64,000 bases of DNA from a virus. Lineage: Duplodnaviria > Caudoviricetes. Positions within the stretch are counted from its first letter, which is position 1. Every line of letters begins with the position of its first letter. Shown here in pieces: positions 28,487 through 59,421 of the stretch. The stretch lies in the IMG/VR virus record IMGVR_UViG_3300032285_001531. One strand, written 5' to 3'. The notes beneath the pieces were generated by a model, which saw nothing but the letters and a program-made list of their open reading frames with translations, had not been told where the DNA came from and searched no databases. The translations under genes and the position numbers were made by a program.

Positions 28487-28487
28487 T

Positions 28488-29255: not shown

Positions 29256-29265
29256 ATTCACATTA

Positions 29266-29295
29266 AATACTCTCTTATAAAGGGAGTATTTTTTT
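29266..29295 (+). terminator. Hairpin with T-tract (terminator or SD-sequestering stem)
   Basis: AATACTCTC-TTATAAA-GGGAGTATT stem followed by Ts; the stem contains the GGGAG SD of the next (TTG-start) gene. Confidence 0.6.
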
Positions 29296-30070: not shown

Positions 30071-31307
30071 GCAACTTTTAACAAGATTAGAAAAAACTCA
30101 ATGGTTGAGTGAACAAGAATTGCAGCAGATGCAATATAATGCACTGAATTCAATAGTAAAACATCATAGAGAACAAAGTCCGTGGTACAAAAAACTTACT
30201 GAGAATGCTGAATCAGTTCCTATTATCAATAAGCATGATATACAACAAGCAGGTCATGAGTTTTTTGCACAAAAAGTATCACAGGATAACTTACCAGCTA
30301 ACACAGTTAAAACTTCAGGTAGCACAGGTGAGCCACTAGAAGTAAGAGTAGGTATTGTCACTGGTAATTTTCACAGTGCATTTTCAGTAAGAAACTTAAT
30401 ATGGAACTTTAAAGAAGAAAACTTAAAATCATCTATCATTAAAGCAAACATAGACAAGTATCAAGAAATGCCTGATTGGGGAAGTCCTTATAATCTTATA
30501 TTAAAGACTGGACCAGTTCAAGGTATCTCTATTAGAACAGACATACCAGAACAGAATAGAATACTCACAGAATTTCAACCTAATATACTATTAACATTCC
30601 CTAATAATCTACGTGCATTATGTGAACTATGGCGTGAAACTGGAGTGCCACTGAAAGACTTGAAGTACATACGAACAATGGGCGAGACTTGTACTGCTAG
30701 TATTAAGAAACTAGTTAAAGAAGTAACTGGATTAAAAGTAATAGATGTTTATAGCAGTCAGGAGTTAGGTGCAATAGCATTAACCTGTCCTGATTCAGAC
30801 TTATATCATACTATGGATGAGAATCTTATCGTAGAAATACTAGACGAGAATGATAAACCATGTGCTGTAGGACAAGAAGGTAGAGTTGTAGTCACTGACT
30901 TACACAATCAACTAAGTCCTATGATACGTTATGATGTAGGTGACTTTGCAGTGCGTGGACCTAAGTGCAGTTGTGGTAGAGGTCTACAAACTATTCATTC
31001 AGTATTAGGTAGACGTAGAAATCTGTTAGTACATCCAGACGGTCGTAGACATTGGCCGTTAATTGGATTTCATGACTTTGGCACTATCGCTAAAGTACGT
31101 AGATTTCAAATGGTTCAGCATAATTTAGAAAATATAGAACTACTGTTGGCTACAGAAATTAAGTTGACAGACGAACAGAAAGATAAATTTATAGAACTAT
31201 TACAAAAGTATACAGGACACGAATTTAAGATTACAGTTACCAATGTGATCGGAGATTTATCTGTACCGGCAAACGGAAAATTTGAGGACTTTATAAGCAA
31301 ATTATGA
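30063..31307 (+). CDS. Phenylacetate-CoA ligase (PaaK)/F390 synthetase-like adenylate-forming enzyme
   Basis: KTSGSTGEP loop, DVYSSQELG, IRYDVGD, CSCGRGL, VLGRR. Confidence 0.88.
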   Translation: MFEQLLTRLEKTQWLSEQELQQMQYNALNSIVKHHREQSPWYKKLTENAESVPIINKHDIQQAGHEFFAQKVSQDNLPANTVKTSGSTGEPLEVRVGIVTGNFHSAFSVRNLIWNFKEENLKSSIIKANIDKYQEMPDWGSPYNLILKTGPVQGISIRTDIPEQNRILTEFQPNILLTFPNNLRALCELWRETGVPLKDLKYIRTMGETCTASIKKLVKEVTGLKVIDVYSSQELGAIALTCPDSDLYHTMDENLIVEILDENDKPCAVGQEGRVVVTDLHNQLSPMIRYDVGDFAVRGPKCSCGRGLQTIHSVLGRRRNLLVHPDGRRHWPLIGFHDFGTIAKVRRFQMVQHNLENIELLLATEIKLTDEQKDKFIELLQKYTGHEFKITVTNVIGDLSVPANGKFEDFISKL

Positions 31308-31984
31308 TAACACATAGACCAGCAAACACTAGAAAACATATGAATCCTGGATGGATTGAAACATATCGTACATTCAGCAACAATTCATACTGGGATCCAA
31401 ATTATGTTAACTATTCATTACTTGAAGTTATAAACGATGATAGAGTACAGCCTAGAAACTGTGTACCTATTCATCAGCATATGGATATGGAAATCTTAGG
31501 ATATGTTATAGAGGGCGAATGCTATCACAATGACAGTCTATATAATATATTAAACGTAAAAGCAGGTGGCATACAGCGTATGAGTGCTGGACGTGGTATT
31601 TGGCACGTTGAGGGCAACATGGGAGATGTGCCTAATCATTACTTACAGATTTGGTTGCGCCCGAATAAGATGGGAGTACCCCCGAACTATGGCATGATCC
31701 AGTTCAGCAGGGAGCAAAAACTAAACAACTTCTTATGCGTAGCTAGTCAAACGGGTCCTATGATCATCCATAGTGATGCTATTGTACGGGCAGGGATCTT
31801 CACAGAGGATTACACTCAACCACTAAATTCAGAGAAAAAGTATTATCTATATATTATCAATGGATCTGCGACTATAAATGGGAAAGAATCCATTATGGGA
31901 GACGGTTATAGCTTTGAAAATGAAGTTATATTAACCATATCTGATGCTAACGACAGCGAAATGTTGCTTTTTGAATTACCTTAA
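31304..31984 (+). CDS. Pirin-family (YhhW-like) cupin protein
   Basis: INDDRV, H.H.DMEI..YV..G...H.DS, QRMSAGRGI.H.E, LQIW. Confidence 0.92.
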   Translation: MITHRPANTRKHMNPGWIETYRTFSNNSYWDPNYVNYSLLEVINDDRVQPRNCVPIHQHMDMEILGYVIEGECYHNDSLYNILNVKAGGIQRMSAGRGIWHVEGNMGDVPNHYLQIWLRPNKMGVPPNYGMIQFSREQKLNNFLCVASQTGPMIIHSDAIVRAGIFTEDYTQPLNSEKKYYLYIINGSATINGKESIMGDGYSFENEVILTISDANDSEMLLFELP

Positions 31985-34372: not shown

Positions 34373-34816
34373 ATGTTAGCAGATAGTTTAAAAGTAGTAT
34401 TAGCAAGTAGTTTCACTTTTTATTTAAAAGCACACAACTTTCATTGGAACGTTGAAGGTTCCAATTTCTCAGAATATCATAAATTTTTGGATGAGTTGCA
34501 AGCTGAAGTGTTTGAGAATGCGATTGACCGTAGCGCAGAATTTATTCGTGTACTTGACCATTATGCTCCAGGTAGCTTGACACGTTTTCATGAATTAAGT
34601 ATAATTGAAGATCAGGTAAAAGTACCACGTGCTGAGTTAATGATTGCTGAATTATACGAAGATAATGCCAAAATCATTGAGATGTTAAAGCAAGTGTTTA
34701 CAATAGCAGAAGAAGCTAACGAAGAAGGCATTGCCAATTTCATAGCAGAACGTATTGATGCACATGGTAAACATTCATGGATGCTACGTAGTTTTCTCAA
34801 AACAAATAGAGAATAA
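34373..34816 (+). CDS. dps: Dps/ferritin-like DNA protection protein
   Basis: FYLKAHNFHWNVEG..F...H, DRSAEFIR, K..WML.S. Confidence 0.93.
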   Translation: MLADSLKVVLASSFTFYLKAHNFHWNVEGSNFSEYHKFLDELQAEVFENAIDRSAEFIRVLDHYAPGSLTRFHELSIIEDQVKVPRAELMIAELYEDNAKIIEMLKQVFTIAEEANEEGIANFIAERIDAHGKHSWMLRSFLKTNRE

Positions 34817-34875
34817 TGGATCCAAACAACACACCAGACAATGATTTACCTGTAATACCTTATGGGGAACATTAA
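34816..34875 (+). CDS. Putative 19-aa microprotein MDPNNTPDNDLPVIPYGEH
   Basis: TAATG overlaps with both neighbouring genes. Confidence 0.55.
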   Translation: MDPNNTPDNDLPVIPYGEH

Positions 34876-35093
34876 TGGAAGAAATCACATCAGATAACAT
34901 CGATCAAATGAGGGAGAAGTTTAAGCCTAAGAAAAAGGCTAACATTATTCCAGAAGAATTGATGAGCAAATCTGCAAGTTATGATGACAAACTACTCTTA
35001 GCTAAACTTCTTTCCGAAAAAGAAAGTAAACGAGTAATCTTAGTTATAAAACAAATGCTTAAAGCAGATAGTAGTAAATCAGGGATCAAATAA
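34875..35093 (+). CDS. Hypothetical protein
   Basis: 72-aa ORF, coupled on both sides. Confidence 0.7.
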   Translation: MEEITSDNIDQMREKFKPKKKANIIPEELMSKSASYDDKLLLAKLLSEKESKRVILVIKQMLKADSSKSGIK

Positions 35094-35308
35094 TGGTTGC
35101 CGAAATGTTGATGTATGGCTTTGTTAGTGCCTTTGGATGGTGGGGAGCAAATCATTATATTATTGAACCACACCTTGAATCTAAACCTGTATTAATGGAA
35201 AAAGAAAAGCAAGAACAGAAATGCACTGACTGGGAAGAAAAAAAGAATCCAGACGGAACGATTAATAGATTTAGAACCTGCGAATCGTTATCAAAGACTT
35301 CACCTTAG
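35093..35308 (+). CDS. Small hypothetical membrane-anchored protein
   Basis: Hydrophobic N-terminus; C-terminal Cys pair. Confidence 0.7.
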   Translation: MVAEMLMYGFVSAFGWWGANHYIIEPHLESKPVLMEKEKQEQKCTDWEEKKNPDGTINRFRTCESLSKTSP

Positions 35309-35370
35309 GACCGTGAGGGCGCGGCTGCTGCGTTATCCAGAGGAGTCGTGCCCCGAGGGTAAAAGTGAGC
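35299..35370 (+). ncRNA. Candidate structured RNA in the desaturase leader
   Basis: GC-rich multi-stem element in an AT-rich genome; no family assigned. Confidence 0.45.
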
Positions 35371-35380
35371 CTAACTAATT

Positions 35381-36085
35381 ATGACAATACTACTTTATAC
35401 ACTAATCACTACACACATTACAATTCTATGTGTCACACTATTTTTACATCGTGGACAAGCACATAAAGGATTTGTATTTCATCCTACATTAAGTCACTTC
35501 ATGCGTTTTTGGCTATGGCTTACAACTGGGATGATTACAAAAGAATGGGTAGCAGTACATAGAAAACATCATCAACTTACTGACATACAAGGTGATCCAC
35601 ATAGCCCACATGTATATGGTATACAGAAAGTAATGATTGAAGGTGCATTATTATATCATGAAGCAGCAAAAGACGAGAACATGGTAAAGCATTATGGAGT
35701 AGGAACTCCTGATGACTGGGTAGAACAAAACGTATATACTAAACATAGTAAGTTAGGAATCAGTTTACTATTAGTATTAGACATGCTATTCTTTGGGTAT
35801 TGGGGAGTAGTAGTTTGGGGAATACAAATGATATGGATACCCTTCTGGGCTGCAGGAGTTATTAATGGCTTAGGACATTGGTATGGATATCGCAATACTG
35901 ACACTAAAGACTTCTCTACAAACATCACAAAAATAGGTATTGTTGTGGGTGGAGAAGAACTACACAACAATCATCACGCTGAACCCGCAAATCCAAAATT
36001 CAGCAGAAAATCCAATGAATTTGATATCGGTTGGCTATATTTTCGCATATTTTCTCTTTTAGGTCTTGCTACGCTACGAGACTAA
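35381..36085 (+). CDS. Delta-9-type membrane fatty-acid desaturase
   Basis: His boxes HRGQAH, HRKHH and HNNHH; DPHSP; FDIGW. Confidence 0.93.
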   Translation: MTILLYTLITTHITILCVTLFLHRGQAHKGFVFHPTLSHFMRFWLWLTTGMITKEWVAVHRKHHQLTDIQGDPHSPHVYGIQKVMIEGALLYHEAAKDENMVKHYGVGTPDDWVEQNVYTKHSKLGISLLLVLDMLFFGYWGVVVWGIQMIWIPFWAAGVINGLGHWYGYRNTDTKDFSTNITKIGIVVGGEELHNNHHAEPANPKFSRKSNEFDIGWLYFRIFSLLGLATLRD

Positions 36086-36088
36086 AAC

Positions 36089-36096
36089 GATAAATA
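36089..36096 (+). promoter_or_regulatory. Late-promoter-like GATAAATA
   Basis: 5 nt before ATG 36102; heads the 36102-42689 run. Confidence 0.7.
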
Positions 36097-36101
36097 TATG
36101 A

Positions 36102-36986
36102 ATGAGAATTACCGATTTTAAAATACACGATACCGAAAAACTAGACCATATACTAGTAAAACTCTGCCAAATGGTTATTAATGGCCAAAAGCAGGATAGT
36201 GACTATTTTGGTATGGTTGCTGCTTGTGTCCTAGACACCCATAATGAAGAAGTCTGTGCCCTAAACTATGTAGTAAAAGACGGCAAACATGTACATGCAG
36301 AACGAGCAGCAATAGACAAATATCACAAACAATATGGTGATATTCCAGCTGGTAGCATTATCATTACAACTTGCAGTCCATGCAGTGAAATGATGACTGA
36401 GCGTTACGGAGATTCTTGTACTAACTTAATAGAAGAAGTTGGTGTACATAAAGTATATTGCGGATACGAAGATCCTACACAAGATAGCAGTGAAAATTAT
36501 GTTCATAAAACATTCCATGTAAAACAAACCCGCAATGAAAAGATTATAGAACTATGCAAATCGTTTGCGGACACTTTCTTAGAAAAAGAAAAGATTGCTG
36601 AAACTAAACATATTATGGAAGAAATTAGAAAAGTCAATGCAGATGAGTTAACTCCAAAGTTTGTTGCATGGGCTAGTAAAATACTAAAATTAGAAACTAC
36701 ACCAGAAATAGAATTAAGCTACGATACAGAAGAAGCGCAAGACGGACATCATACTGGTCGTCATACTGAAGGTGATAACAAAGTTTGGGTATATGCTAAG
36801 AACAGAAACTTAGTTGACATATATCGTACAATATTCCATGAATTAGTTCACGTAAGACAAGGTGAATTAAACATGATTAAGCCCGGTGATAGTTATCCCG
36901 GCAGTCCAATAGAACAACAAGCTGATGTACTTGCAGGTAAGTATATCAAAGTATTTGGAGCAGAACATCCGGAGATTTTTCAATGA
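36102..36986 (+). CDS. Zn-dependent deaminase domain fused to a zincin (HExxH) domain
   Basis: HAERAAI, TCSPC...C and VYCGYEDP; C-terminal IFHELVHVRQ...E.QAD. Confidence 0.8.
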   Translation: MRITDFKIHDTEKLDHILVKLCQMVINGQKQDSDYFGMVAACVLDTHNEEVCALNYVVKDGKHVHAERAAIDKYHKQYGDIPAGSIIITTCSPCSEMMTERYGDSCTNLIEEVGVHKVYCGYEDPTQDSSENYVHKTFHVKQTRNEKIIELCKSFADTFLEKEKIAETKHIMEEIRKVNADELTPKFVAWASKILKLETTPEIELSYDTEEAQDGHHTGRHTEGDNKVWVYAKNRNLVDIYRTIFHELVHVRQGELNMIKPGDSYPGSPIEQQADVLAGKYIKVFGAEHPEIFQ

Positions 36987-39061: not shown

Positions 39062-39969
39062 GAGCAATAGAGTTTTTAGTAGAGTATGATCGTGCTAAGA
39101 CGATGATGAACTTAGGTAATATCCTACATCAAAAAATGTTGAAGGATCGTACTGTACAACGTATATTCGGTGATGACCCTGTAGAGATAATCGATCCGGC
39201 TGTGATAATTGAATTTGCATTAGATAGATTTCAAGAGGCAGATCCTAGTCCTAACAAACAATATGTTCAATGGATAGCAAGAACCTATGCTAAAGATCCT
39301 AACTTCAAATTTGAAGATGTATTAAGTACTGTTCATCCATACTTAGAAAAGTTTTATAAACTAATCAAACGTAAAAAGATTCCTAGTCCACAAAACGATA
39401 TAAACAAGTATTCTGATTTTAAAGTTTTTATGGGAGTACTGGATCAATTTCCTGATCCAGACGGTGAAGCAATACAAAAAGATAAAGGTCATGCTTTCAC
39501 ACTATACGAAGATGATAAGTGGAGAGTTATAGTACCACAAGATGAACCAGCAGCATGTTATTATGGTCAAGGCTCACGTTGGTGTACTAGTGCAACCAAA
39601 GCTAGAAACATGTTTAGCTATTATAATAATATATCTCCATTGCTTATTGCGATTCCAAAAGATCCATTTCATCCAGGTGAGAAGTATCAATTACACTTTG
39701 GTATATCAATTGATGATTACCCAATGAAAAGTGATAGTGATATAGAAGATTATATTAATCAAAATGATGACATGTCTGATTCAGGACTTGATGAAGTACT
39801 TGAGTATGGTCAAATAATGGATGAGCATGATGATCCAATGTCATTCTATGATATGACACGTAGATTGGGTGGTAGTTGGGATGGAATTATTGACGCATAC
39901 ATTGCTAAATTCCCAGATCGTAAATGGCAATTACTTATGAATTTAGAACAAGTTGAAGGTCGTGATTAA
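39058..39969 (+). CDS. PcfJ-like (WCT-motif) protein
   Basis: AACYYGQGSRWCTSA motif with a downstream KYQLHF; N-terminal MRAIEFLVE. Confidence 0.65.
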   Translation: MRAIEFLVEYDRAKTMMNLGNILHQKMLKDRTVQRIFGDDPVEIIDPAVIIEFALDRFQEADPSPNKQYVQWIARTYAKDPNFKFEDVLSTVHPYLEKFYKLIKRKKIPSPQNDINKYSDFKVFMGVLDQFPDPDGEAIQKDKGHAFTLYEDDKWRVIVPQDEPAACYYGQGSRWCTSATKARNMFSYYNNISPLLIAIPKDPFHPGEKYQLHFGISIDDYPMKSDSDIEDYINQNDDMSDSGLDEVLEYGQIMDEHDDPMSFYDMTRRLGGSWDGIIDAYIAKFPDRKWQLLMNLEQVEGRD

Positions 39970-42689
39970 TGAGAGCAACTGAGTTCATCACAGAAGCATT
40001 TGATAAGCCCTATGCATATAACTGGCAGCGTGGTGATCATGGTGATTACGATATACTAGTTAAATTACCAGACGGTTCACCACTAAACATTTCATTCAAT
40101 CACGAAGGTGATGACGTATGGCATGTTGCATTTGATCGTGGGCATAGTCAAGAAATCACTGGTGAAGGTGATGCACAAAGAATATTTGCCACAGTATTAC
40201 ACAGCATTAAACAATTCATTGGTAAACAACATCCAGAGAAGTTATATTTCTCTGCAAGCAAACAAGTTGAACCAGGGCAACGCAGCGAGAGCAGAGCGAA
40301 TTTATATAGTAGAATGATCAAGCGTTATGCTAGTTCTATGGGATATGACTCTGTTACTGATGACTTTGGTAGAGATAGTGTAACGTATATACTAAACAAA
40401 AAGCAAGGTGTGACAGAAGATACCGAAAACAGCATGTCTACTGAAGATATGATTGCTTATCTAAGACAACACCATGATAGTAATCTTCATCAGGACTACA
40501 TAAATCACTTAAACACATTCAGTAAGTTTGTACTACGAGATATTCCAGTGAACACAATTAAAACAGAGTTACCTGGCCTAGATAAAGCAAAAGTAGAACA
40601 ATATAAAAAAATGGATTTCAGCAAGGCACCTCCTATTGTAATGGGAAATGGTCATATCTTAGATGGTTATCACAGAACAACAGTAGCAAAAGCATTAGGT
40701 ATTCCTACTATCAAAGGTTATGTTGGTATTAAACATCAAGGTGTGGCGGAAGGCTCGGAAAACAATGGAATTAGTTTCAAGGTACAAAAAGGTAAAAACA
40801 AATTTGCAACTACTTTAAGTGTTGGTGTCAACCCAGTAGGAGTATACCAATATGATGCTGATACAGGTCGTAGTGTGGCCGAGGTTTATCCAGAATTCAA
40901 AGGCAAAGGATTAGGTAAATTATTAGTTTTACATGCTATCTATACCGCGGCCAAATTGGGATTAGATTTCCAAGAAGATGAATCAAGAACTTCAGAGTAT
41001 GATAATGTATTAGATAGTTTGAGTAGCAACGGTTATATTGTAGATGACGATGGTTATTGGTATGTTACCGGCGAAGGTGAACAATATCTACAACAAGCAT
41101 TAAAGCAAGATGTGGCGGAAGGCTCATTAAACGAAATTTACAAAATGCCGCCTACTAAAGATAGTAGTCAAGGAATGGCAATTTGGGCTTACAATGATGC
41201 AGTAGAAAAAAAGTCGCCTGTGTTTTATAGAGATAACAATGTAATAATTTTCAAATTCAATGAATATTTACTGCGATATATCATATTGCAAGATGGAAAC
41301 CCTGTGTTATATATCGGGTTAAGTAGATTCCTTGATGGATATAAATCCGGTACTGTTGCTACTGAAATAGAAGGGCGCGGCAAGGGTCTGGCACAAAAAG
41401 CATATTTGAATGCCAGTGATATTTTAGGTGTACCAATATATAGTGATACCACACAAACTGATGCAAGTAGGTTGGGTATATGGGATAAACTGATTCAACA
41501 ATATCCAGATAGAATTGTTGGGTACGATCAAAAAACTAACAAGGATTTACCTTTGTCAATGTCTGATAAAGGACCAATAGTGAATCAAAACCAACCAATA
41601 TATGTTAACAATAAAGATACTAATAAACCAATAGCACCAAATCAACGATATAGAACAAGAATTTTAAAACTACTACCTATCAAGCAAGGTGTGGCAGAAG
41701 GCAGAGAAAATTATAATGGTATAAATTTGTTACTTCAGCGAGATGATGATGAAGTTTTTGTTAAAGCCTCAGCAGGTGGTAGAGAATTAGGTCATGTATT
41801 GTTTGTAGATGAAGGTGACTACTTAATGCCACAAGACCTAGAAGTTGATGAACGTTTTCAAGGTCAAGGTATTGCTCAAACAATGTATGACTATGTTAAA
41901 AGCAAAGGATATAAGATACGCCGTAGTGGTCAGCAAACTGCTGCAGGTGCAGGCTTCTGGGACAAACATCGCCCTGAACAGAATGTTTGGGAAGGTACAG
42001 CAGACGATATTAACAAAATGTTTAACAACATGTATGATCCGTTGACAACAAATTTACAACGTGTAGCATTGATGGCTATGCAGGGTAGACAAGATGAAGC
42101 GGGAATGCAGTTGAATCGTGTAATCAAAGATGCAAGTCCAGAAGCACAAAAGAAAATTATTGATGCTGTAAACAATATCAAACCAGTAACAATCAATGGC
42201 AAAGTAGCAGACAGTTCAACATTAGATAAAAGTCATACACATCAAGACTGGATCTTAAACACATTTATTCCTTGGGTAAAGAAAACTATTGGTCATCAAG
42301 ATGTTACTGAAGATGCAACACCTACAATGGGTATCAATGTAAGAAGTGACGGTGATATTGACTATGCTAGTTTAATCATTGATGGCAAGAAAAAATATGA
42401 ATCTCGTCAGACTGATAGTCTTAGACCATATGTTGGTAAAACAGTTGCAATTGTTAGAACTGGTAAAGGTCCTGCAGTTGCAATTGGTCAAGTAACAGTA
42501 GGTGACCCAATTGTAGTAGATGCAGAAAAGTTTGACAAAATGCGCAAACAACATTTAGTACCACAAGGCAGCAAGTTTGATATAGGTATCGATGCTACCA
42601 AATATCTATATCCAATGATTAATCCAGTTCGTTGGGATAATGAAAAACTAGTAAAACAAAAAGGTATTGTTGCTAGAAAGATTGATTAA
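39969..42689 (+). CDS. Modular polyprotein: GNAT-like domains, ParB/Srx-like domain, ASCH domain
   Basis: PPIVM....LDGYHR; V.PEFKGKGLG, E.RGKGLAQ and VDERFQGQGIAQ.MY (GNAT motif A); YASLIIDGKKKYESR (ASCH). Confidence 0.8.
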   Translation: MRATEFITEAFDKPYAYNWQRGDHGDYDILVKLPDGSPLNISFNHEGDDVWHVAFDRGHSQEITGEGDAQRIFATVLHSIKQFIGKQHPEKLYFSASKQVEPGQRSESRANLYSRMIKRYASSMGYDSVTDDFGRDSVTYILNKKQGVTEDTENSMSTEDMIAYLRQHHDSNLHQDYINHLNTFSKFVLRDIPVNTIKTELPGLDKAKVEQYKKMDFSKAPPIVMGNGHILDGYHRTTVAKALGIPTIKGYVGIKHQGVAEGSENNGISFKVQKGKNKFATTLSVGVNPVGVYQYDADTGRSVAEVYPEFKGKGLGKLLVLHAIYTAAKLGLDFQEDESRTSEYDNVLDSLSSNGYIVDDDGYWYVTGEGEQYLQQALKQDVAEGSLNEIYKMPPTKDSSQGMAIWAYNDAVEKKSPVFYRDNNVIIFKFNEYLLRYIILQDGNPVLYIGLSRFLDGYKSGTVATEIEGRGKGLAQKAYLNASDILGVPIYSDTTQTDASRLGIWDKLIQQYPDRIVGYDQKTNKDLPLSMSDKGPIVNQNQPIYVNNKDTNKPIAPNQRYRTRILKLLPIKQGVAEGRENYNGINLLLQRDDDEVFVKASAGGRELGHVLFVDEGDYLMPQDLEVDERFQGQGIAQTMYDYVKSKGYKIRRSGQQTAAGAGFWDKHRPEQNVWEGTADDINKMFNNMYDPLTTNLQRVALMAMQGRQDEAGMQLNRVIKDASPEAQKKIIDAVNNIKPVTINGKVADSSTLDKSHTHQDWILNTFIPWVKKTIGHQDVTEDATPTMGINVRSDGDIDYASLIIDGKKKYESRQTDSLRPYVGKTVAIVRTGKGPAVAIGQVTVGDPIVVDAEKFDKMRKQHLVPQGSKFDIGIDATKYLYPMINPVRWDNEKLVKQKGIVARKID
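40404..42314 (+). repeat. Dispersed 15-18 nt linker repeat encoding Q-[GD]-V-[AT]-E-[GD]
   Basis: Copies at 40404, 40737, 41106, 41685 and 42297, plus degenerate QNVWEG at 41979. Three copies match CAAGRTGTGGCRGAAGGC. Confidence 0.9.
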
Positions 42690-42701: not shown

Positions 42702-42730
42702 TTGTATTCTTAACACATTTCTGCTATAAT
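42702..42730 (+). promoter_or_regulatory. Sigma70-type promoter TTGTAT-17 nt-TATAAT (TG-extended -10)
   Basis: Exact 17-nt spacer; TGC before the -10; ATG at 42737. Confidence 0.8.
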
Positions 42731-42736
42731 AATCTT

Positions 42737-43348
42737 ATGAACAAGATTGGCAATTTTGAATCCATTGGTTGTGATTGTGAGTTTGGATTGGTTCAACGAA
42801 CCTTGAATTACGAACCTATGACTTTATTAAGATGGTCTAGTATAAATTTACACAGTTTAGTTAGAATGATTGACGATGATTTTAAAGATTTAAAAAATAT
42901 TGATACATATGATATTGATAGAAATGACGATTTAGAATACATGGTTACTAATACAAGTTATCATCTTTGGTCACATACTGACACACGACATGACACTTCC
43001 AAATCTGAATTAATAGAATCATCCTTCAAACGAATAAATTATTTGCAACGTCAATTTGTAAAGGAAGCAAAAAATAATAAAAAAATATATGTTCACAAAT
43101 CTAAAAGTATTACTACTGAAGAAATGCAATTATTATATAATGCAATGAAATCATTAGGTGCTGATAGAATTTTATTTGTACTAAAAGACATTGACCTAAA
43201 AAATACGTTTGTTGAATCAGAATTTGGTTTGATTGCTTACATATCTGATTTTTATCCAAACACAAAGTTTGATGAATGGGAATCTATTCTTGATTATGCA
43301 CTTGAGTACTTTAATGAAAATAACATATCCCATAATAAATCAGTCTAA
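42737..43348 (+). CDS. DUF1796-like putative papain-like peptidase/hypothetical protein
   Basis: N-terminal FESIGCDCEFG and RRI..L-like SFKRINYL pattern. Confidence 0.5.
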   Translation: MNKIGNFESIGCDCEFGLVQRTLNYEPMTLLRWSSINLHSLVRMIDDDFKDLKNIDTYDIDRNDDLEYMVTNTSYHLWSHTDTRHDTSKSELIESSFKRINYLQRQFVKEAKNNKKIYVHKSKSITTEEMQLLYNAMKSLGADRILFVLKDIDLKNTFVESEFGLIAYISDFYPNTKFDEWESILDYALEYFNENNISHNKSV

Positions 43349-44462
43349 CGAATTTAGAAAAACAGTTATAGAACAACTTTACTATTTGTCCGAACATATT
43401 AATTCTTTACAAATTGAAAATGATATGTTAATAATTAGTATAGATGATCCTTTATGTGTTGATGAAGCTGAAATTATAACATCGGTAAAAAGAATAATAG
43501 AAACTACGGAAAAAAGTTTTAGAGCCTTTAAAGAAACAATTTCATATGAATCGGAAAACAAATCTACTTACAACTTAGATCCTAATATATGGTTAATTGA
43601 AAACGGTGATTTATTAACACATAGTAATGGAACATATGTTTATACTGGTACTTTAGCAAAAGTTATTACTGGATTAGATAATTTCTTACAAAAATTATGT
43701 ATTAAGTTTGGAGCAGTTGAATATATATTTCCAACTACTATGCCGTTTGACTCATTAAACAACTCAGGATACATAAAATCTTTCCCACAACATGTAGGAT
43801 TTATTTCATATGGTCAAAAAGGATACGATGGTTTTACAAAATTAGTAACTGCTTTAGATGATAATCAAGTTGAAAAATACTTAGGAGACGTTAAATTAAT
43901 ACTAGCACCTACTGTTTGCCATCATTTATTTCAAACTATTAAACTTTCTAAATCTACTAAGAAATTGATTGTTACCGGAAGTTCAAAATGTCATAGAAAT
44001 GAAGATAAAACTGCATATGGAATTGAAAGATTAAACAGTTTCAACATGCGTGAAATAATTTTTATTGATGAACCCGATATAGTATCAAATAAACTAACAG
44101 AGTTTTCAAATATATTAAATGATATTTTTACTAAATGGAATATTTATTTTATAAAAATGAATGCTACTGACCCGTTCTTTGCAGGGGAAATGTCAAATAA
44201 AAAAATATATCAATCTATGCTAGATTTAAAAAACGAGTACAAATTTCATTTACCTTATAGTAATAAATGGCTTGCTACAACTTCTATAAATTATCATAGA
44301 GATAATATACTATATGGATTTGATATTAATACTGATAAGTTGCATTCAGGTTGTATAGCATTTGGATTAGAAAGAATTGCATTAAGTTTATTCTCTCAGT
44401 TTGGTACTAATACTAAAGAATGGCCTACAAATTTAACAGAAGATTTGGGGATTAACCTATGA
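43314..44462 (+). CDS. Amino acid:[carrier protein] ligase (class II SerRS-like)
   Basis: GYIKSFPQH, LAPTVCHH (Zn ligand Cys), CHRNE (motif 2), FNMREIIF, ATDPFF, HSGCIAFGLER (motif 3). Start moved to ATG 43314. Confidence 0.85.
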   Translation: MKITYPIINQSNEFRKTVIEQLYYLSEHINSLQIENDMLIISIDDPLCVDEAEIITSVKRIIETTEKSFRAFKETISYESENKSTYNLDPNIWLIENGDLLTHSNGTYVYTGTLAKVITGLDNFLQKLCIKFGAVEYIFPTTMPFDSLNNSGYIKSFPQHVGFISYGQKGYDGFTKLVTALDDNQVEKYLGDVKLILAPTVCHHLFQTIKLSKSTKKLIVTGSSKCHRNEDKTAYGIERLNSFNMREIIFIDEPDIVSNKLTEFSNILNDIFTKWNIYFIKMNATDPFFAGEMSNKKIYQSMLDLKNEYKFHLPYSNKWLATTSINYHRDNILYGFDINTDKLHSGCIAFGLERIALSLFSQFGTNTKEWPTNLTEDLGINL

Positions 44463-44710
44463 TAGAAGATATTGTAAAATCAGTAATAGAAAAATATGCA
44501 AAAAAACCTATTACCAAAACAGAAAATTTTATTGAAGAAACTGATATTGATTCTTTATCATTAATAAACGTGTTAATGGATTTAGAAGAAGAACTTAACA
44601 TTGAATTTGATTTATCTGTTATGGTCATAGAAGATGTCAGTACCCTAGAAGATATGGTAAATTACGTTACAAAATTAAAGAATCAAGCGTTGCAAATCAG
44701 CAAAAATTAA
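44459..44710 (+). CDS. Acyl/aminoacyl carrier protein
   Basis: DIDSLSLINVLMDLEEELNIEF (phosphopantetheine Ser in DSL); small and acidic. Confidence 0.88.
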   Translation: MIEDIVKSVIEKYAKKPITKTENFIEETDIDSLSLINVLMDLEEELNIEFDLSVMVIEDVSTLEDMVNYVTKLKNQALQISKN

Positions 44711-44718
44711 TATATAAT
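44690..44718 (+). promoter_or_regulatory. Sigma70-type promoter TTGCAA-17 nt-TATAAT
   Basis: Exact 17-nt spacer, upstream of the dsDNA-binding protein/DNA polymerase operon. Confidence 0.7.
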
Positions 44719-44741
44719 TAACTCTTTTATAAGGAAATAAC

Positions 44742-45011
44742 ATGGATACTATTGAATCAAGAACCTTTACCCTCGATCAAAAGACAAAGCTTACCCAAAT
44801 TATCAATGAAGGTATGGCAGTAATGCAAGAGATTGATGACTTGAATGGTGGCTTATCAGACACTATTAAAGCAGTAGCAGAAGAAATGGAAATCAAACCT
44901 AGCGTATTAAAGAAAGCTATTCGTGTAGCACACAAAATGGAATTAGGTAAAACTCAACAAGAGCAAGAATTACTAGAAAACATTCTCACAACTGTAGGAA
45001 AAACTCTTTAA
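44742..45011 (+). CDS. T4 DsbA/GapR-like double-stranded DNA-binding protein
   Basis: Helical pattern I.EG..V..EI.DL...L.DTIKAVAEE.EIKP..L.KAI..AHK. Confidence 0.65.
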   Translation: MDTIESRTFTLDQKTKLTQIINEGMAVMQEIDDLNGGLSDTIKAVAEEMEIKPSVLKKAIRVAHKMELGKTQQEQELLENILTTVGKTL

Positions 45012-47710
45012 TGTATGTAGACGCAATTCACGACAGGGATAATGATAAAATCCATGTCGTAGAACGTACACCTGACGGCAAACGCAGATATCAAGAATAT
45101 CCTGCGAACTATGTGTTATATTACAGTGATCCTAAAGGCAAGTATCGTAGCCTCTATGGTGATTCAGTAAGCAGATTCAGTACACGTAAGCGTGGTGAAT
45201 TTGAAAAGGAACGTAGAATACAATCAAACAAACAATTGTTTGAGAGTGATATTAATGTGGTGTTTAGATGTCTAAGTGACAACTATCTTAATGTTGATGC
45301 TCCTAAACTACATACTTGTTTCTTTGACATTGAGGTTGACTTTGATCCTGACAAAGGATTCAGTCCAACTACAGATCCATTCAATCCAGTAACAGCAATC
45401 TCATTATACTTAGATTGGCAAGACTTACTGGTCACACTATGTATTGCACCAAAGCATATGAGTGATGAAACTGCATGGGAAATAACAAAGAAGTTTGAAA
45501 ACTGTTTGTTATTTAAAACCGAAACAGAAATGTTCGAAACCTTTTTTCAACTTATTGAAGATGCAGATGTAATGACTGGTTGGAACTCAGAGGGATATGA
45601 TATACCTTACATGGTTAATCGTGTCACTAGAGTAATGAGTAAAGATGATACACGTAGATTTTGTCTATTAGGTCAACTACCTAAGCCTAGAACATATGAA
45701 CGTTTTGGTAAAGAAGAACAAACATACGACTTGATTGGTCGTATTCATATGGACTATTTGCAATTGTATAAGAAGTATAACTACGAATCACGACATAGCT
45801 ATAAACTAGATGCAATTGGTGAGATGGAAGTTGGTGAGAACAAAACTCAATACGAAGGTACCCTTGATCAATTATACAATAAAGACTGGGAAAAGTTCTT
45901 GGAGTATAACAGACAAGATACGATGTTGTTAGTTAAGATTCACAATAAATTAAAATTCTTAGACCTAGCAAATGCACTAGCACATGAAAATACTGTGCTG
46001 TTGCCAACTGTTATGGGTTCAGTTGCAATGATTGAACAGGCTATTTTTAATGAAGCACATGAACGTGGATTAGTTGTACCTGACAAAAATAGAAAGGAAC
46101 ACAATGATGAACAACAAGCAGCAGGTGCCTATGTTGCTACGCCGAAAAGAGGCATGCACGAATATGTTGGTGCCGTCGATATCAACTCGCTCTATCCCTC
46201 GGTTATTAGGGCCCTCAACATGGCGCCAGAAACAATTGTCGGTCAAGTTAGACAAACCCTAACTAATCAATACATGCGAGATAAAGGTCTACGTCTTGCA
46301 ATGGAAAAGAAAAGATATAAAGAAGGTGATGATGAAGTTACCGGTAGTGTACTATGGGAGGGATTATTTAGTGCGTTAGAGTATACCGCAGTAATGAATC
46401 AAGAACGTGGCACTATATTAACTATTGATTTTGAAGATGGTCGTAGTGAAGAACATAGTGCTGCTGAAATATGGAAGATGATATTTGATAGCAATAGACC
46501 ATGGATGCTTAGTGCTAACGGTACAATCTTTACATACGAACAAGAAGGAGTTATTCCTGGTCTATTATCACGTTGGTACAGTGATCGTAAAGACATGCAA
46601 AAGAAACTCAGAGAATCAACTACTGATGAAGATAAAGAGTACTGGGATAAACGACAATTGGTTCGTAAGATTTTACTTAACTCTGCATACGGTGCATTGT
46701 TGAATGAACATTGTCGTTTCTATGATAAGCGTATTGGTCAAAGTGTTACATTAAGTGGTCGTCAAATTGTTAAACACATGATGAGCCAAATCAATGAATG
46801 TATCGCAGGTGACTATAACCATGAAGGTGAAGCAATTGTTTATGGTGATACTGACTCATGTTATTTCTCAGCATACAGTGTATTGAAACCTGAAATAGAT
46901 AAAGGTGAAGTACAATGGGATAAAGATATGTGTATTCAATTGTATGACAATATCGCAGACCAAGCTAATGAAAGTTTTCCTGCATTTATGGAGAAAGCAT
47001 TTCATGCTCCTCGTAAGAATGGTGCAATCATTAAAGCAGGTCGTGAACTGATTGGTGATCGTAGTATCTTTATTACAAAGAAGCGTTATGCTATTAATAT
47101 CTATGACAAAGAGGGTAAGCGTAAAGATACAAACGGTAGTACTGGGCAAATTAAAGCTATGGGTTTAGATTTGAAACGTGCTGACACGCCTAAATATGTA
47201 CAAGAGTTTTTGATGAGTGTATTGCAATGTGTACTAGATGGTGGCACACGTGATACCGTAATTGATATGATTAAAACATTTAAATTGCAATTGGCTCAAC
47301 AAGAACCTTGGACTAAAGGTAGCCCTAAATCAGTGAATAAGTTAACTATGTATGGTGACAAAGAAAAGGCAGCAGGTAAAACTAACATGCCTGGTCACGT
47401 AAGAGCAGCGTTAAACTATAACTATTTGCGTAATGCTAATAGTGACAACTATAGTCAAAAGATTGTAGATGGTATGAAAATTGTAGTATGTAAACTTAAA
47501 CCTAATCCATTAGGATATACAAGTATTGCATACCCAACTGACGAACTTAGATTACCTAAATGGTTCTGTGAGTTACCATTTGACGATTATGAAATGGAAA
47601 AAACACTAGTTGATGAAAAGATTGATAACTTGTTAGGAGTTATGAATTGGGACTTAAGAATAAGCACTGACGTTAATTCTACGTTTGATGACTTCTTTTC
47701 GTTCGGGTAA
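45011..47710 (+). CDS. polB: Family B DNA polymerase with 3'-5' exonuclease
   Basis: FFDIEVD, GWNSEGYD, YNRQD, DINSLYPS, KILLNSAYG, YGDTDS, KKRYA. Confidence 0.97.
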   Translation: MYVDAIHDRDNDKIHVVERTPDGKRRYQEYPANYVLYYSDPKGKYRSLYGDSVSRFSTRKRGEFEKERRIQSNKQLFESDINVVFRCLSDNYLNVDAPKLHTCFFDIEVDFDPDKGFSPTTDPFNPVTAISLYLDWQDLLVTLCIAPKHMSDETAWEITKKFENCLLFKTETEMFETFFQLIEDADVMTGWNSEGYDIPYMVNRVTRVMSKDDTRRFCLLGQLPKPRTYERFGKEEQTYDLIGRIHMDYLQLYKKYNYESRHSYKLDAIGEMEVGENKTQYEGTLDQLYNKDWEKFLEYNRQDTMLLVKIHNKLKFLDLANALAHENTVLLPTVMGSVAMIEQAIFNEAHERGLVVPDKNRKEHNDEQQAAGAYVATPKRGMHEYVGAVDINSLYPSVIRALNMAPETIVGQVRQTLTNQYMRDKGLRLAMEKKRYKEGDDEVTGSVLWEGLFSALEYTAVMNQERGTILTIDFEDGRSEEHSAAEIWKMIFDSNRPWMLSANGTIFTYEQEGVIPGLLSRWYSDRKDMQKKLRESTTDEDKEYWDKRQLVRKILLNSAYGALLNEHCRFYDKRIGQSVTLSGRQIVKHMMSQINECIAGDYNHEGEAIVYGDTDSCYFSAYSVLKPEIDKGEVQWDKDMCIQLYDNIADQANESFPAFMEKAFHAPRKNGAIIKAGRELIGDRSIFITKKRYAINIYDKEGKRKDTNGSTGQIKAMGLDLKRADTPKYVQEFLMSVLQCVLDGGTRDTVIDMIKTFKLQLAQQEPWTKGSPKSVNKLTMYGDKEKAAGKTNMPGHVRAALNYNYLRNANSDNYSQKIVDGMKIVVCKLKPNPLGYTSIAYPTDELRLPKWFCELPFDDYEMEKTLVDEKIDNLLGVMNWDLRISTDVNSTFDDFFSFG

Positions 47711-54210: not shown

Positions 54211-54894
54211 ATGAGTTTTAATAAGACAAAAACAGATCCTATTTTAGGACAACAAGTACACGAACATTTAGTAAAAATGGGAGTTGAAACTCCAATGAAT
54301 GCTAATAATCGGGACCGTAAAGAAAAGATTGAATTAATTGAGAGCTATTTCGAAGGCATAATGATGGCTTTGGGTTTAGACTTACAAGATGATAGTCTTA
54401 ACGAAACACCTAAGCGTGTTGCTAAGATGTATGTTAACGAAATCTTTTGGGGATTAGATTATGATGCATTCCCTAAATGTACTACAGTAGACAACAAGAT
54501 GAATTACAACGAAATGGTAGTAGAACGCAATGTATCAGTGCAAAGTAACTGTGAACATCACTTTGTTATCATTGACGGTCTTGCTACAGTTGCGTATGTG
54601 CCTAATCAAAAAGTATTAGGACTAAGCAAAATCAATCGTATTGTAGAATACTTTAGTAAGCGTCCACAGATACAAGAACGACTAACAGAGCAAATCTTTC
54701 ACACACTATGCTATATCCTTGAAACAGACGATGTTGCAGTTCTTATAAATGCTAGACATTATTGTGTGCGTAGCAGGGGAGTCGAAGATGCCGGAAGTTC
54801 TACCGTTACTAGTAGATTAGGCGGTGGTTTCAAAACTGATCCTGCTGCAAGAGCAGAATTTATGAGGATGGTTTCTTTAAGCGACCTAAATTAA
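54211..54894 (+). CDS. folE: GTP cyclohydrolase I
   Basis: ETPKRVAKMY, CEHHF, GLSKINRIV, RPQIQERLT, H.CV..RG. Confidence 0.97.
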   Translation: MSFNKTKTDPILGQQVHEHLVKMGVETPMNANNRDRKEKIELIESYFEGIMMALGLDLQDDSLNETPKRVAKMYVNEIFWGLDYDAFPKCTTVDNKMNYNEMVVERNVSVQSNCEHHFVIIDGLATVAYVPNQKVLGLSKINRIVEYFSKRPQIQERLTEQIFHTLCYILETDDVAVLINARHYCVRSRGVEDAGSSTVTSRLGGGFKTDPAARAEFMRMVSLSDLN

Positions 54895-54952
54895 GAGAAT
54901 TTGTTGCAGGATCATCAGGAAATAGATGTTGTAAAAACTAGAGGATTAGAAG

Positions 54953-55426
54953 ATGATATTCAATCACATTAAGAAACTTAAAGCAGAAGGTAAGAAGATA
55001 GGTATAACATTTTCTACCTTCGACTTGTTACATGCAGGTCATATTGCTATGCTAAGTGAAGCAAAGAATCATTGTGATTATCTTATTGCTGGCTTACAAA
55101 CTGATCCAACAATAGATAGACCTGATACTAAGAATAAACCTGTGCAAAGTATTGTAGAACGACAAATTCAATTGTCAGCATGTCGTTATGTTGATGAAGT
55201 GGTTGTGTATCAAACTGAACAAGACTTAATTGACTTATTATTGATTCTACCAATAGATGTTAGAATACTAGGTGTAGAGTATGAGAACAAAGACTTTACC
55301 GGTAAGAAAGAATGCTGGGATCGTGACATTGAATTAGTATTCAATGGGCGTGATCATAGTTTCAGTTCTAGTAGTCTGCGTAAACGTGTTGCTAATGCAC
55401 AAATAGTTAATAAATTAAACAAATAA
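54953..55426 (+). CDS. Cytidylyltransferase (TagD-like, HxGH)
   Basis: TFDLLHAGH, GLQTDP, KPVQS..ER, SSSSLR. Confidence 0.88.
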   Translation: MIFNHIKKLKAEGKKIGITFSTFDLLHAGHIAMLSEAKNHCDYLIAGLQTDPTIDRPDTKNKPVQSIVERQIQLSACRYVDEVVVYQTEQDLIDLLLILPIDVRILGVEYENKDFTGKKECWDRDIELVFNGRDHSFSSSSLRKRVANAQIVNKLNK

Positions 55427-55430
55427 AAAT

Positions 55431-55476
55431 AGCGGTCTAGGCAATCACCCCGCTCTACAAATTCTGCTGCCTATGA
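55431..55476 (+). ncRNA. preQ1-I-like pseudoknot/riboswitch candidate in the queD leader
   Basis: P1 AGCGG/CCGCT, loop TCTAGGCAATCACC, A-rich linker, P2 TAGGCA/TGCCTA. Confidence 0.55.
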
Positions 55477-55494
55477 TAATGTAGGAAAATAGTT

Positions 55495-56025
55495 ATGACA
55501 ATCGTTAGTAAAGACAATGTTTGGGGAATGCCGACTAAACAATACAAATACACTAGTACCAAAGAATACCACGATGCATTTCCATGTGCATATCGTCAAT
55601 GGAGAGCAGACAGCCATTGTAACTTGATTCATGGTTATAGTTTTAGTATGAAGTTTTACTTTGGTACTGACAGTTTAGATGTACGTAATTGGGCTGCTGA
55701 CTATGGTGGATTAAAAGAACTAAAAGGTATACTGGAAGATCAGTTTGACCATACGTTACTTGTAGCACAAGATGATCCAGAGTTAGAAACATTCAAATTA
55801 TTACAAGAAAAGAAACTTGCTAAATTGACAATTCTTCCAAAATTAGGATGTGAAGGTTTAGCCGATATGCTTTACAAGTACGTGAATGGAGTGTATATTT
55901 CTGATATGTGGGGAGAGGGTGAAGCTGAACGTCTTTGGTGTTATCGTGTAGAAGTACGTGAAACTCAAAGTAACATGGCTTTTAGAGAAGGTCATAGACA
56001 TTGGAATGAGGACTTGTTTAAATGA
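55495..56025 (+). CDS. queD: 6-carboxy-5,6,7,8-tetrahydropterin synthase
   Basis: CNLIHGY, DYGGLK.LK..LEDQFDH.LL, GCEGLA, VEVRET..N.A. Confidence 0.9.
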   Translation: MTIVSKDNVWGMPTKQYKYTSTKEYHDAFPCAYRQWRADSHCNLIHGYSFSMKFYFGTDSLDVRNWAADYGGLKELKGILEDQFDHTLLVAQDDPELETFKLLQEKKLAKLTILPKLGCEGLADMLYKYVNGVYISDMWGEGEAERLWCYRVEVRETQSNMAFREGHRHWNEDLFK

Positions 56026-56579
56026 AAACATTAGTTAGTTATGCCGAGGTTGAACTACATTGTTTAACTATAGCAAAACAAATGAGCAAAGACAAATGGA
56101 TACCTGATTATATTGTAGGTATAACACGTGGTGGACTTTTACCTGCTGTCTTGCTAAGTAACTGGTTTGACTGTAAAATGTACACATTAGATGTAAGACT
56201 GCGTGATGGTAAAGGTGATGGATGCGAAAGCAATCTATGGATGCCCGAAGATGCAATCGGGTATGTACCAGAAGATCAACGTGGTGAAAGTGGCACACGA
56301 GTAGATCCGGCACATCGTAAGAATATATTAATCGTTGATGATATTAATGATACTGGTGCTACTATCAATTGGATTATGCAAGATTGGAAGAAAAGTTGTT
56401 TACCTAACAATAGTGCATGGGATACAGTATGGGGAAACAATGTAAAAGTTGCTACACTATTTGATCGTGGACTATCAAGCAATAGTGAAATGCCGCATCA
56501 GTATACAGGTGTATTAGTTACACAAGACAATGATCCGGGTTGGGTTGTATTTCCCTGGGAAAGCTGGTGTGGAGAATAA
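56022..56579 (+). CDS. Type I phosphoribosyltransferase (xanthine/guanine PRT-like)
   Basis: IVGITRGGL.PA, PRPP-binding ILIVDDINDTGAT, WVVFPWE. Confidence 0.92.
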   Translation: MKTLVSYAEVELHCLTIAKQMSKDKWIPDYIVGITRGGLLPAVLLSNWFDCKMYTLDVRLRDGKGDGCESNLWMPEDAIGYVPEDQRGESGTRVDPAHRKNILIVDDINDTGATINWIMQDWKKSCLPNNSAWDTVWGNNVKVATLFDRGLSSNSEMPHQYTGVLVTQDNDPGWVVFPWESWCGE

Positions 56580-56590
56580 TAGGAGAATAT

Positions 56591-56794
56591 ATGAAAGAAC
56601 TTACAATTATAGAAAAAACTAATTTTAAATTAAAACTAAAACAATGGAAATGTGAAACACCTAACGAATTAAATTCTATTGAATTTGTACAAGAACAAAT
56701 CAATGATGAGGGTGATGTAACTACAACGTCAACATATAACTTTTTTATGACTGATGCTGAACTTAAAAAATTGGCTGAGAGTTTATCACAATGA
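56591..56794 (+). CDS. Hypothetical protein
   Basis: AGGAG SD; start moved to ATG 56591. Confidence 0.75.
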   Translation: MKELTIIEKTNFKLKLKQWKCETPNELNSIEFVQEQINDEGDVTTTSTYNFFMTDAELKKLAESLSQ

Positions 56795-59233: not shown

Positions 59234-59421
59234 TGATAACTATACCACATGACAAAATAAATGTAGTACATCATTATTTGAATACAGAAGTATCAAAGCG
59301 CCAATATTATTTTCACTCTGAGTTTGGAAATCATGATTGGAAAATTGAACGAAGTAATACTGATTGGGTATTACATGCCGATGTTAAACATGAAACATAT
59401 ATTGCATTAAGGTTTTTATGA
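59233..59421 (+). CDS. Hypothetical protein
   Basis: 62-aa coupled ORF. Confidence 0.65.
   Translation: MITIPHDKINVVHHYLNTEVSKRQYYFHSEFGNHDWKIERSNTDWVLHADVKHETYIALRFL

Follow-up and report, generated by a model that had tools for sequence, protein, structure and literature searches.

A 64,000-nucleotide stretch of the virus record IMGVR_UViG_3300032285_001531 (IMG/VR; Duplodnaviria, Caudoviricetes), referred to throughout as the window, carries a cassette of three overlapping genes that encode a protein of an uncharacterized family (here called g1), an amino acid:[carrier protein] ligase resembling seryl-tRNA synthetase (SerRS), and an acyl carrier protein (ACP). The observations support a model in which these genes constitute a three-component, horizontally acquired aminoacyl-carrier pathway that would act in the cytoplasm of the infected cell, with g1 passing the amino acid from the carrier to an acceptor; we put the probability of this reading at about one in two. 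The g1 protein is not a bystander, as its family is linked to carriers and to three non-homologous kinds of carrier loader, namely, DltA-like enzymes, FkbH-domain proteins, and ligases related to aminoacyl-tRNA synthetases (aaRS). We place g1 in the pathway because its gene overlaps that of the ligase and has diverged to the same extent as its neighbors, because the pairing of g1 with the ligase recurs in two metagenome contigs, and because its relatives in bacteria have carriers and loaders as neighbors. The linkage of the family to carriers and their loaders in bacteria also makes g1 the likely transferase.

The host DNA of the cassette is that of an uncultured T4-like jumbo phage of ~350 kb, and proteins of the window recur on a contig of 349,679 bp. 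The family B DNA polymerase encoded at 45011-47710 shares no more than 49% identity with that of any GenBank phage, the closest being the polymerases of Sinorhizobium phage Phosso and Agrobacterium phage Atu_ph07. An earlier note on this DNA, made from the letters alone, had described a self-contained three-gene cassette lying between the late gene cluster and the replication operon. Both parts of that description were borne out: three co-oriented, overlapping open reading frames (ORFs) occupy 42737-44710 on the + strand, with late/structural and accessory genes upstream and a module of dsbA-like, DNA polymerase, and clamp genes downstream. The components of the cassette and the residues on which its interpretation depends are as follows.

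42737..43348, + strand: g1, 203 amino acids; single-domain protein of an uncharacterized family, distantly DUF1796/DUF1919-like; proposed aminoacyl-carrier-protein-dependent transferase
43314..44462, + strand: SerRS-like amino acid:[carrier protein] ligase, 382 amino acids; N-terminal ferredoxin-like domain of ~95 amino acids, then a class II aaRS core
43908..43925, + strand: PTVCHH motif of the ligase, residues 199-204
44459..44710, + strand: carrier protein (ACP), 83 amino acids; PF00550
44552..44554, + strand: TCT codon of carrier Ser32 in DIDSL, the phosphopantetheine attachment site predicted from sequence and alignment

The longest frame for the ligase opens at a TTG at 43233; we placed the start at the ATG at 43314 because homologues align from residue 1 there and the gene call in the protein collection agrees. 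The g1 and ligase genes overlap by 35 nucleotides and the ligase and carrier genes by 4, the carrier start lying within the ligase stop (ATGA), a layout that points to a single transcript with coupled translation.

The proposal of a SerRS-like ligase with a PTVCHH motif was upheld, with the catalytic and zinc residues all present. The ligase matched the NCBIfam model for amino acid--[ACP] ligases (NF005479) at an E value of 1.8e-38 and 132 bits and the model for methanogen-type SerRS (NF002120) at 7.7e-33. When a profile of the family was built from 41 homologues, it matched Bll0957 (3mey) at 1.4e-82 over profile positions 78-388, and methanogen-type SerRS structures ranked next at 1.9e-50 and 1.4e-33, with 3w3s among the SerRS matches. 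The AlphaFold 2 model (mean predicted local distance difference test [pLDDT], 91) superposed best on 4h2s_B, a glycine:[carrier protein] ligase in complex with its carrier, giving a target-normalized template-modeling (TM) score of 0.88, a root mean square deviation of 2.6 Å, and 26% identity. Residues R228 and E230 of motif 2, R354 of motif 3, and C202, E247, and C347 are invariant across the family. The last three align in HMMER to positions 151, 196, and 299 of the 3mey chain, which would be the Bll0957 zinc ligands Cys131, Glu176, and Cys279 if the chain bears a 20-residue tag. These zinc ligands were reportedly assigned by Mocibob et al. in 2010. The enzyme belongs to a separate subfamily of ~380 to 400 amino acids and is not an equivalog of the characterized enzymes.

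The methanogen-type SerRS matches (NF002120 at 7.7e-33; 3w3s), together with a weak lead from the ESM Atlas that connects the N-terminal part of the ligase to tRNA_bind_4 of methanogen SerRS (score, 0.77), suggest another reading, that the enzyme is a truncated seryl-tRNA synthetase charging a host or phage tRNA and that the small ORF downstream is not its substrate. We consider this highly improbable. The best matches in both sequence and fold are tRNA-independent ligases, and the ~95 N-terminal amino acids are too few for the full SerRS tRNA-binding domain of ~165 amino acids, of which they could represent a fragment at most. Moreover, the gene next to the phage ligase encodes a carrier, which holds also for many of the homologues among 40+ loci, and there are no tRNA genes in the window. 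The profile match to Bll0957, the superposition on 4h2s_B, the adjacent carrier, and the lack of tRNA genes together favor what the earlier note had proposed, a module for the aminoacylation of a carrier protein.

The third gene had been called an ACP, and its product scored 34.8 bits against the Pfam PP-binding model PF00550, for which the gathering cut-off is 20.8. The segment ETDIDSLSLINVLMDLEEEL in the carrier is the classic helix-2 motif (DIDSL), in which the serine is Ser32. When the phage carrier was aligned with 15 carriers of related loci (n = 16), D31 and S32 were the only invariant columns.

For g1, the label "DUF1796-like" held at the level of the superfamily and failed as a statement of Pfam membership. 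The ESM Atlas gave a feature score of 0.94 and structural TM scores of 0.71-0.86 to clusters with DUF1796/DUF1919; g1 itself had no match in Pfam (E ≤ 0.1), NCBIfam, or PHROGs (the last also without a match for the ligase), and ten of its relatives had no DUF1796/DUF1919 match at E ≤ 0.001. An exhaustive HMMER scan found 1998 relatives of g1 at E ≤ 1e-3, most of them forming the C-terminal domain of longer Pseudomonadota proteins with TPR repeats. Alignment of the family identified the invariant residues G11, C14, E15, G17, Q20, L30, H80, and W181. In the AlphaFold 2 model (pLDDT, 93), g1 adopts a three-layer alpha/beta fold of the Rossmann/flavodoxin-like type, with C14 placed in the glycine-rich loop joining strand 1 and helix 1. 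No hydrophobic segment was evident when the g1 sequence was read by eye.

Specific structural relatives of g1 were confined to 2g6t (VIA Z, 8.9; Foldseek E, 7e-4), an uncharacterized Clostridium acetobutylicum protein that is presumably the DUF1919 protein CA_C2185, and the uncharacterized HI_1244; other fold matches were generic flavodoxin/CheY-like ones. A papain-like peptidase, considered on account of the DUF1796 label, was rejected, as the fold searches returned flavodoxin/CheY-like alpha/beta structures and no papain-like match. A search of the literature found no paper on the function of DUF1796 and none tying it to carriers.

The genomic surroundings of g1 relatives connect the family to carriers and to the enzymes that load them. 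The only other g1-ligase pair known lies on two metagenome contigs (L007 and L008; 1.7-1.9 kb; G+C content, 21%), where a homologue of g1 with a longer N terminus (49% identity) is followed after 9 nucleotides by a homologue of the ligase (48%). One of these contigs shares a study series (record names KRAE22-1) with a copy of the phage contig. At L125, a three-gene operon encodes a TPR-g1 protein, an 87-amino-acid carrier, and a stand-alone amino acid adenylation enzyme (TIGR01733, 340 bits, above the cut-off; DltA subfamily, 2e-79), and at L126, genes of the glycosyltransferase (GT) families GT2-GT47-GT2 precede g1, a DltA-like enzyme, and a carrier; L137 and L139 have g1, a carrier, and a DltA-like enzyme in a similar arrangement. 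FkbH enzymes put a glyceryl unit on carrier proteins, and in 12-13 further loci a g1 protein occurs together with an FkbH-domain protein (281 bits to TIGR01686; cut-off, 147) and a carrier. In the L184 protein, a GT61 glycosyltransferase domain is joined to the g1 domain. A g1 protein, an FkbH-domain protein, and a carrier with the motif GWDSF were seen together at L142, L154, L158, L162, L179, L184, L191, L209, and L217.

Counted across 79 metagenome loci fetched solely for the g1 domain, a carrier and/or a loader was present in 25. A single hidden Markov model (HMM) detected 18 carrier-like ORFs across the 564 kb that the g1 loci span, and it detected none in the controls, which comprised 206 kb from bacteria and 999 kb from related phages. 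These counts come from contigs that differ in length, and they are not corrected for phylogeny. In one alphaproteobacterial genome there are seven g1 paralogues, of which only two lie near a carrier. The g1 family is missing from four bacterial genomes that have the ligase, and g1 and the ligase are therefore not obligate partners. We conclude that the association of the g1 family with carriers is strong and not universal.

The bacterial context of the ligase was drawn from more than 40 loci. In Pseudomonadota and related metagenome contigs, it lies beside a carrier of ~80 amino acids, a DltB-type MBOAT, a conserved partner of 330-390 amino acids, and often a sulfotransferase-family protein, and these genes stand among glycosyltransferases and ABC exporters in polysaccharide loci. 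The module of MBOAT, ligase, 330-390-amino-acid protein, carrier, and sulfotransferase was observed at L003, L009-L018, and L020-L022, in polysaccharide loci of marine Alpha- and Gammaproteobacteria. The partner comprises two clusters, c36 and c46, that are related to each other; we considered whether they might be DltD and rejected this identification (hhalign probability, <1%). A recognizable DltD occurs at one ligase locus only, L002. In actinomycetes (L025-L043, around 10001-11200), the neighbors of the ligase are instead a KAS III-like protein and an acyl-CoA dehydrogenase, and the locus resembles a secondary-metabolite cluster. In a maximum-likelihood tree, on a long and compositionally biased branch, the phage ligase was sister to P0004 (99/88), whose locus has a carrier and an MBOAT, and both fell within a Pseudomonadota-type clade of 33 rows (100/99).

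This placement bears on an alternative in which the ligase and carrier would feed a host MBOAT/DltD-like system that aminoacylates a surface glycopolymer, g1 being an unrelated accessory that travels with them. The bacterial ligases closest to that of the phage (P0004, P0005, and the clade of 33 rows) do occur with a carrier, an MBOAT, and the 330-390-amino-acid partner in polysaccharide loci, one of them with a true DltD. We consider this alternative unlikely nonetheless, as it leaves unexplained the 35-nucleotide overlap between g1 and the ligase and the retention of their adjacency at 48% identity in L007/L008. The g1 family is, in addition, tied independently to carriers and loaders, and pairs of carrier and enzyme are usually specific. 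HMMs for the bacterial partner proteins (MBOAT, the c36/c46 family, and the sulfotransferase) had no match in the 64-kb window, where DltD and other known acceptor transferases are likewise absent, and HMMs for FkbH and DltA-like enzymes gave no match there either.

The cassette is a lineage-specific insertion. When presence and absence were compared among relatives, none of 80 IMG/VR loci with a polymerase 61-91% identical to that of the phage, nor one further locus at 47%, had g1, the ligase, or the carrier. The dsbA-like gene upstream of the polymerase was kept in all of those loci but one, which has a short upstream flank, and the clamp-like gene downstream was kept wherever the contig reached it. 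A 335-kb relative that is 95% complete has no ligase, PP-binding domain, g1 family member, or phosphopantetheinyl transferase (PPTase). A single close relative, the 2.6-kb contig L124, carries the cassette at the same place, with flanking proteins 94-100% identical.

Comparison with L124 gave synonymous divergence (dS) of 0.21-0.22 in all three cassette genes and 0.23-0.24 in the flanking dsbA-like and polymerase genes. The ratio of nonsynonymous to synonymous divergence (dN/dS) was 0.19-0.23 in each of the three, and the frames are intact in both phages. The cassette genes have thus travelled together and are under purifying selection. The foreign composition of the cassette, its position in a variable region, and its absence from nearly all relatives would be expected of passenger DNA without function for the phage, an explanation that we find scarcely credible given frames intact in two phages at a dS of ~0.22, a dN/dS of 0.19-0.23, and the retention of the catalytic residues.

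The impression that the cassette is richer in A+T than its flanks was confirmed by computing G+C content: values of 0.276 for g1, 0.267 for the ligase, and 0.254 for the carrier are the three lowest of the 53 ORFs in the window. The remaining ORFs have a mean of 0.358 (standard deviation, 0.028; minimum, 0.288), so that the cassette genes lie at z scores of -3.0 to -3.8. The shift is greatest at first codon positions and therefore reflects a foreign amino acid composition, more than silent-site drift alone. Of the claim that the cassette was recently acquired, horizontal acquisition by one sub-lineage stands, given its absence in relatives and a G+C content of 25-28% against 36% for the phage. 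"Recently" has to be qualified, as the cassette is older than the split from L124, its dS matching that of the flanking genes. At 25-28%, the G+C content of the cassette is intermediate between 36% for the phage and 21% for the L007/L008 pair, which would accord with an origin in a very AT-rich donor and partial amelioration thereafter. The lineage of L007/L008 is a possible donor.

Searches of IMG/VR and of GenBank phages gave no verified instance of the cassette. No relative of the ligase was found in IMG/VR with either the single protein or the profile, and megablast of the cassette region against GenBank phages gave no match. The sole tblastn match, MT835751.1 ("UNVERIFIED Bacteriophage sp."), was rejected as a phage case, as its ligase and carrier stand among transposases and ABC transporters and the record looks bacterial. 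Members of the g1 family were seen on 9 IMG/VR contigs, each of high G+C content and none encoding the ligase. A PADLOC search returned nothing meaningful.

Two promoter-like elements bracket the cassette.

42702..42730, + strand: promoter-like TTGTAT-17-TATAAT ahead of g1, read from sequence
44690..44718, + strand: resident promoter-like TTGCAA-17-TATAAT of the dsbA-like/polymerase module, kept in cassette-free relatives; marker of the right-hand junction

The first had been proposed as a sigma70 promoter driving the cassette, which the analysis did not sustain: TTGTAT (42702-42707), separated by 17 nucleotides from TATAAT (42725-42730), matches the -35 consensus at only 3 of 6 positions, and a promoter scanner did not report it. 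The AT-rich stretch contained 28 promoter-like sites, in line with the 25.3 expected from shuffles. The element ahead of g1 is conserved in L124, as is everything around it. The g1 ATG lies 6 nucleotides past the -10 and has no Shine-Dalgarno sequence, so a leaderless g1 mRNA would fit if the candidate promoter is used.

The second element overlaps the last ~8 codons of the carrier, and the same element is kept in relatives lacking the cassette. The right-hand junction is therefore placed at ~44685-44690, with the C-terminal tail and stop of the carrier coming from resident phage DNA. TTGCA-N17-TATA(T)AAT and a ribosome-binding site before the dsbA-like gene (44690-44741) are conserved in L045, L048, L050, L079, and L113, each with differing upstream genes, and the variable region ends there. 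Directly upstream of the cassette, a 906-amino-acid protein (39969-42689) combines GNAT, ASCH, and DUF6934-like modules; its presence and modules vary among relatives, of which only fragments match.

We propose that the pathway would proceed as follows. A PPTase, probably that of the host, would convert the 83-amino-acid carrier to its holo form at Ser32. The ligase, a zinc-dependent class II aaRS-like enzyme, would then activate a small amino acid with ATP and load it on the pantetheine thiol to give an aminoacyl-S-carrier, with no involvement of tRNA; by analogy with characterized relatives, the candidates are glycine, alanine, and serine. For these two steps we infer function in this subfamily from strong homology to solved, biochemically characterized enzymes. 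In a third step, g1 may move the aminoacyl group from the carrier to an acceptor, with chemistry that could use the invariant Cys14 together with Glu15 and His80; gene linkage and the invariant Cys/Glu/His set lend this role moderate support.

The nature of the acceptor is the most speculative part of the model. As g1 appears to be soluble and no membrane MBOAT partner was found in the window, the acceptor is expected to be accessible from the cytoplasm. The more likely target seems to be a sugar or a lipid-linked precursor of a glycan, a preference based on the glycosyltransferase fusions and neighbors of g1 relatives, on the occurrence of DUF1919 in polysaccharide loci, and on the bacterial contexts of the ligase. 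A protein would be the alternative, and it stays a candidate because bacterial members of the g1 family usually carry TPR repeats. For DNA, which the earlier note had listed among possible targets, the only support lies in the 7-deazaguanine pathway genes found 10 kb downstream. The phage could benefit by remodeling, in the course of infection, a surface polymer of its host or a protein of host or phage origin.

Several observations weigh against this model. The ligase score of 132 bits is far under the NF005479 equivalog cut-off of 357, and the enzyme has an additional N-terminal domain of ~95 amino acids with beta-alpha-beta-beta-alpha topology, the part to which the weak tRNA_bind_4 lead applies. 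Neither the subfamily of ~390-amino-acid ligases nor the g1 family is known to include a biochemically studied member. Bacterial carriers beside g1 relatives have GWDSF as their attachment motif, and the phage carrier has DIDSL. A local AcpS/Sfp HMM found no PPTase in the 64-kb window of this ~350-kb genome, and PF01648 is absent from five related phage records, one of them 95% complete; the PPTase acting on the carrier is therefore probably that of the host. Among 19 g1 loci flanked by at least 3 kb on each side, 13 had neither a carrier nor a loader and 6 had one or both, and the link of g1 to these genes is therefore an enrichment rather than a rule. Finally, co-occurrence with carriers would fit an analogue of a holo-synthase or a thioesterase equally well as a role for g1.

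That last point leads to the alternative that g1 has the carrier, and not an acceptor, as its target. It could then be a holo-carrier synthase of non-canonical type, a thioesterase for proofreading or release, or an enzyme that alters the amino acid on its tether. Linkage to carriers accompanied by three unrelated loaders would suit any carrier-directed activity. No PPTase was found in the window or in the 95%-complete relative, and g1 has a Rossmann/flavodoxin-like fold with a glycine-rich beta1-alpha1 loop, both of which speak for this alternative. We judge this decidedly unlikely. The TPR and glycosyltransferase fusions, and the up to 7 paralogues with only some near a carrier, are a better fit to transferases that have diversified by acceptor; the seven-paralogue genome already encodes a canonical AcpS; and a thioesterase acting alone in an operon of three genes would set up a futile cycle. 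Transfer of the amino acid from the carrier to an acceptor is the function that we prefer for g1.

Comparison with known systems places the cassette among several partial precedents. Bll0957 (with its carrier), Bll6282, and Atu2573 from Bradyrhizobium/Agrobacterium (3MEY and 4H2S) have in common with the phage enzyme a class II aaRS core of methanogen-type SerRS ancestry, the Cys/Glu/Cys site, the motif 2 and 3 arginines, and an adjacent carrier gene. The phage ligase differs from the Bll0957 type in its identity of ~26%, its extra N-terminal domain of ~95 amino acids, its location in a phage, and its g1 partner. The Bradyrhizobium/Agrobacterium amino acid:[carrier protein] ligases are reportedly the work of Mocibob et al. 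in 2010 and 2013 (cited in PMC9437257).

The DltABCD system follows the same logic, in which an ATP-dependent loader passes its product to a small carrier and then to a glycopolymer. Bacterial relatives of the phage ligase sit with a DltB-type MBOAT, and in one case with DltD, while g1 relatives sit with DltA-like enzymes and DltC-like carriers. The phage differs in that its loader is a class II aaRS homologue instead of an ANL adenylation enzyme, in that the window has no MBOAT or DltD, and in that the proposed transferase is soluble and unrelated. AlmEFG of Vibrio cholerae, comprising a loader, a carrier, and a cytoplasm-facing transferase, places glycine onto lipid A, an envelope glycolipid. 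The phage cassette resembles it as a three-gene unit, although AlmE, an adenylation enzyme, and AlmG, an LpxL-type acyltransferase, are non-homologous to the phage ligase or g1.

DUF1796 (PF08795) and DUF1919 (PF08942) are the closest neighbors of g1 by fold and language model, and g1 lies outside both Pfam models. DUF1919 is found in exopolysaccharide/capsule loci and in GT2 fusions, and neither family has a demonstrated activity. FkbH loaders and stand-alone carriers of polysaccharide/polyketide loci are recurrent neighbors of g1 relatives, and the window has no FkbH. Ligases of the aaRS-like type that load carriers were first described in 2010, and the purpose of the loading is still not known, according to a 2022 review (PMC9437257). 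Carrier-protein modules have been reported as accessory genes of jumbo phages (PMC13573597); unlike the cassette described here, they were not described with an aaRS-like loader.

Elsewhere in the window, a run of genes typical of 7-deazaguanine (preQ0) synthesis at 54211-57660 encodes GTP cyclohydrolase I, a cytidylyltransferase-like protein, a QueD-type PTPS, a phosphoribosyltransferase, and a radical-SAM protein, pointing to deazaguanine modification of DNA or tRNA by the phage. Beside tail-fibre-like genes at 28437-31984 are a papain-family peptidase (C1/C39_2), a 414-amino-acid protein, and a pirin. The 414-amino-acid protein has weak AMP-binding and CapK_C similarity (4.7e-5, below the cut-off) and may be a second acyl-activating enzyme of the phage. 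Upstream of the cassette, at 34373-36986, ferritin, a 234-amino-acid protein of the membrane-type fatty-acid desaturase family, and dCMP deaminase look like accessory metabolic genes, and a UvdE-type UV damage endonuclease (PF03851, 1.1e-40) is encoded at 59418-60476.

The ligase and carrier are of a known kind; what appears new, in the libraries searched, is their location in a phage, the three-gene form with g1, and the link between the g1 family and carrier loaders. We think it quite possible, if short of probable, that the g1 family is an unrecognized class of carrier-protein-dependent (amino)acyl transferases that would serve as the downstream enzyme for aaRS-like ligases and also for DltA-like and FkbH loaders. 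The phage would then have the smallest version, three soluble proteins with which to aminoacylate a glycan precursor or a protein of the host or virion. An all-soluble cassette of three genes that is under selection in a phage offers the simplest natural context yet for the fate of the loaded amino acid. The link between g1 and the loaders names a candidate for the missing transferase and provides a testable role for some two thousand uncharacterized proteins. If true, it would represent a new accessory function of phages, the aminoacylation of a cellular or viral target independently of both tRNA and nonribosomal peptide synthetases.

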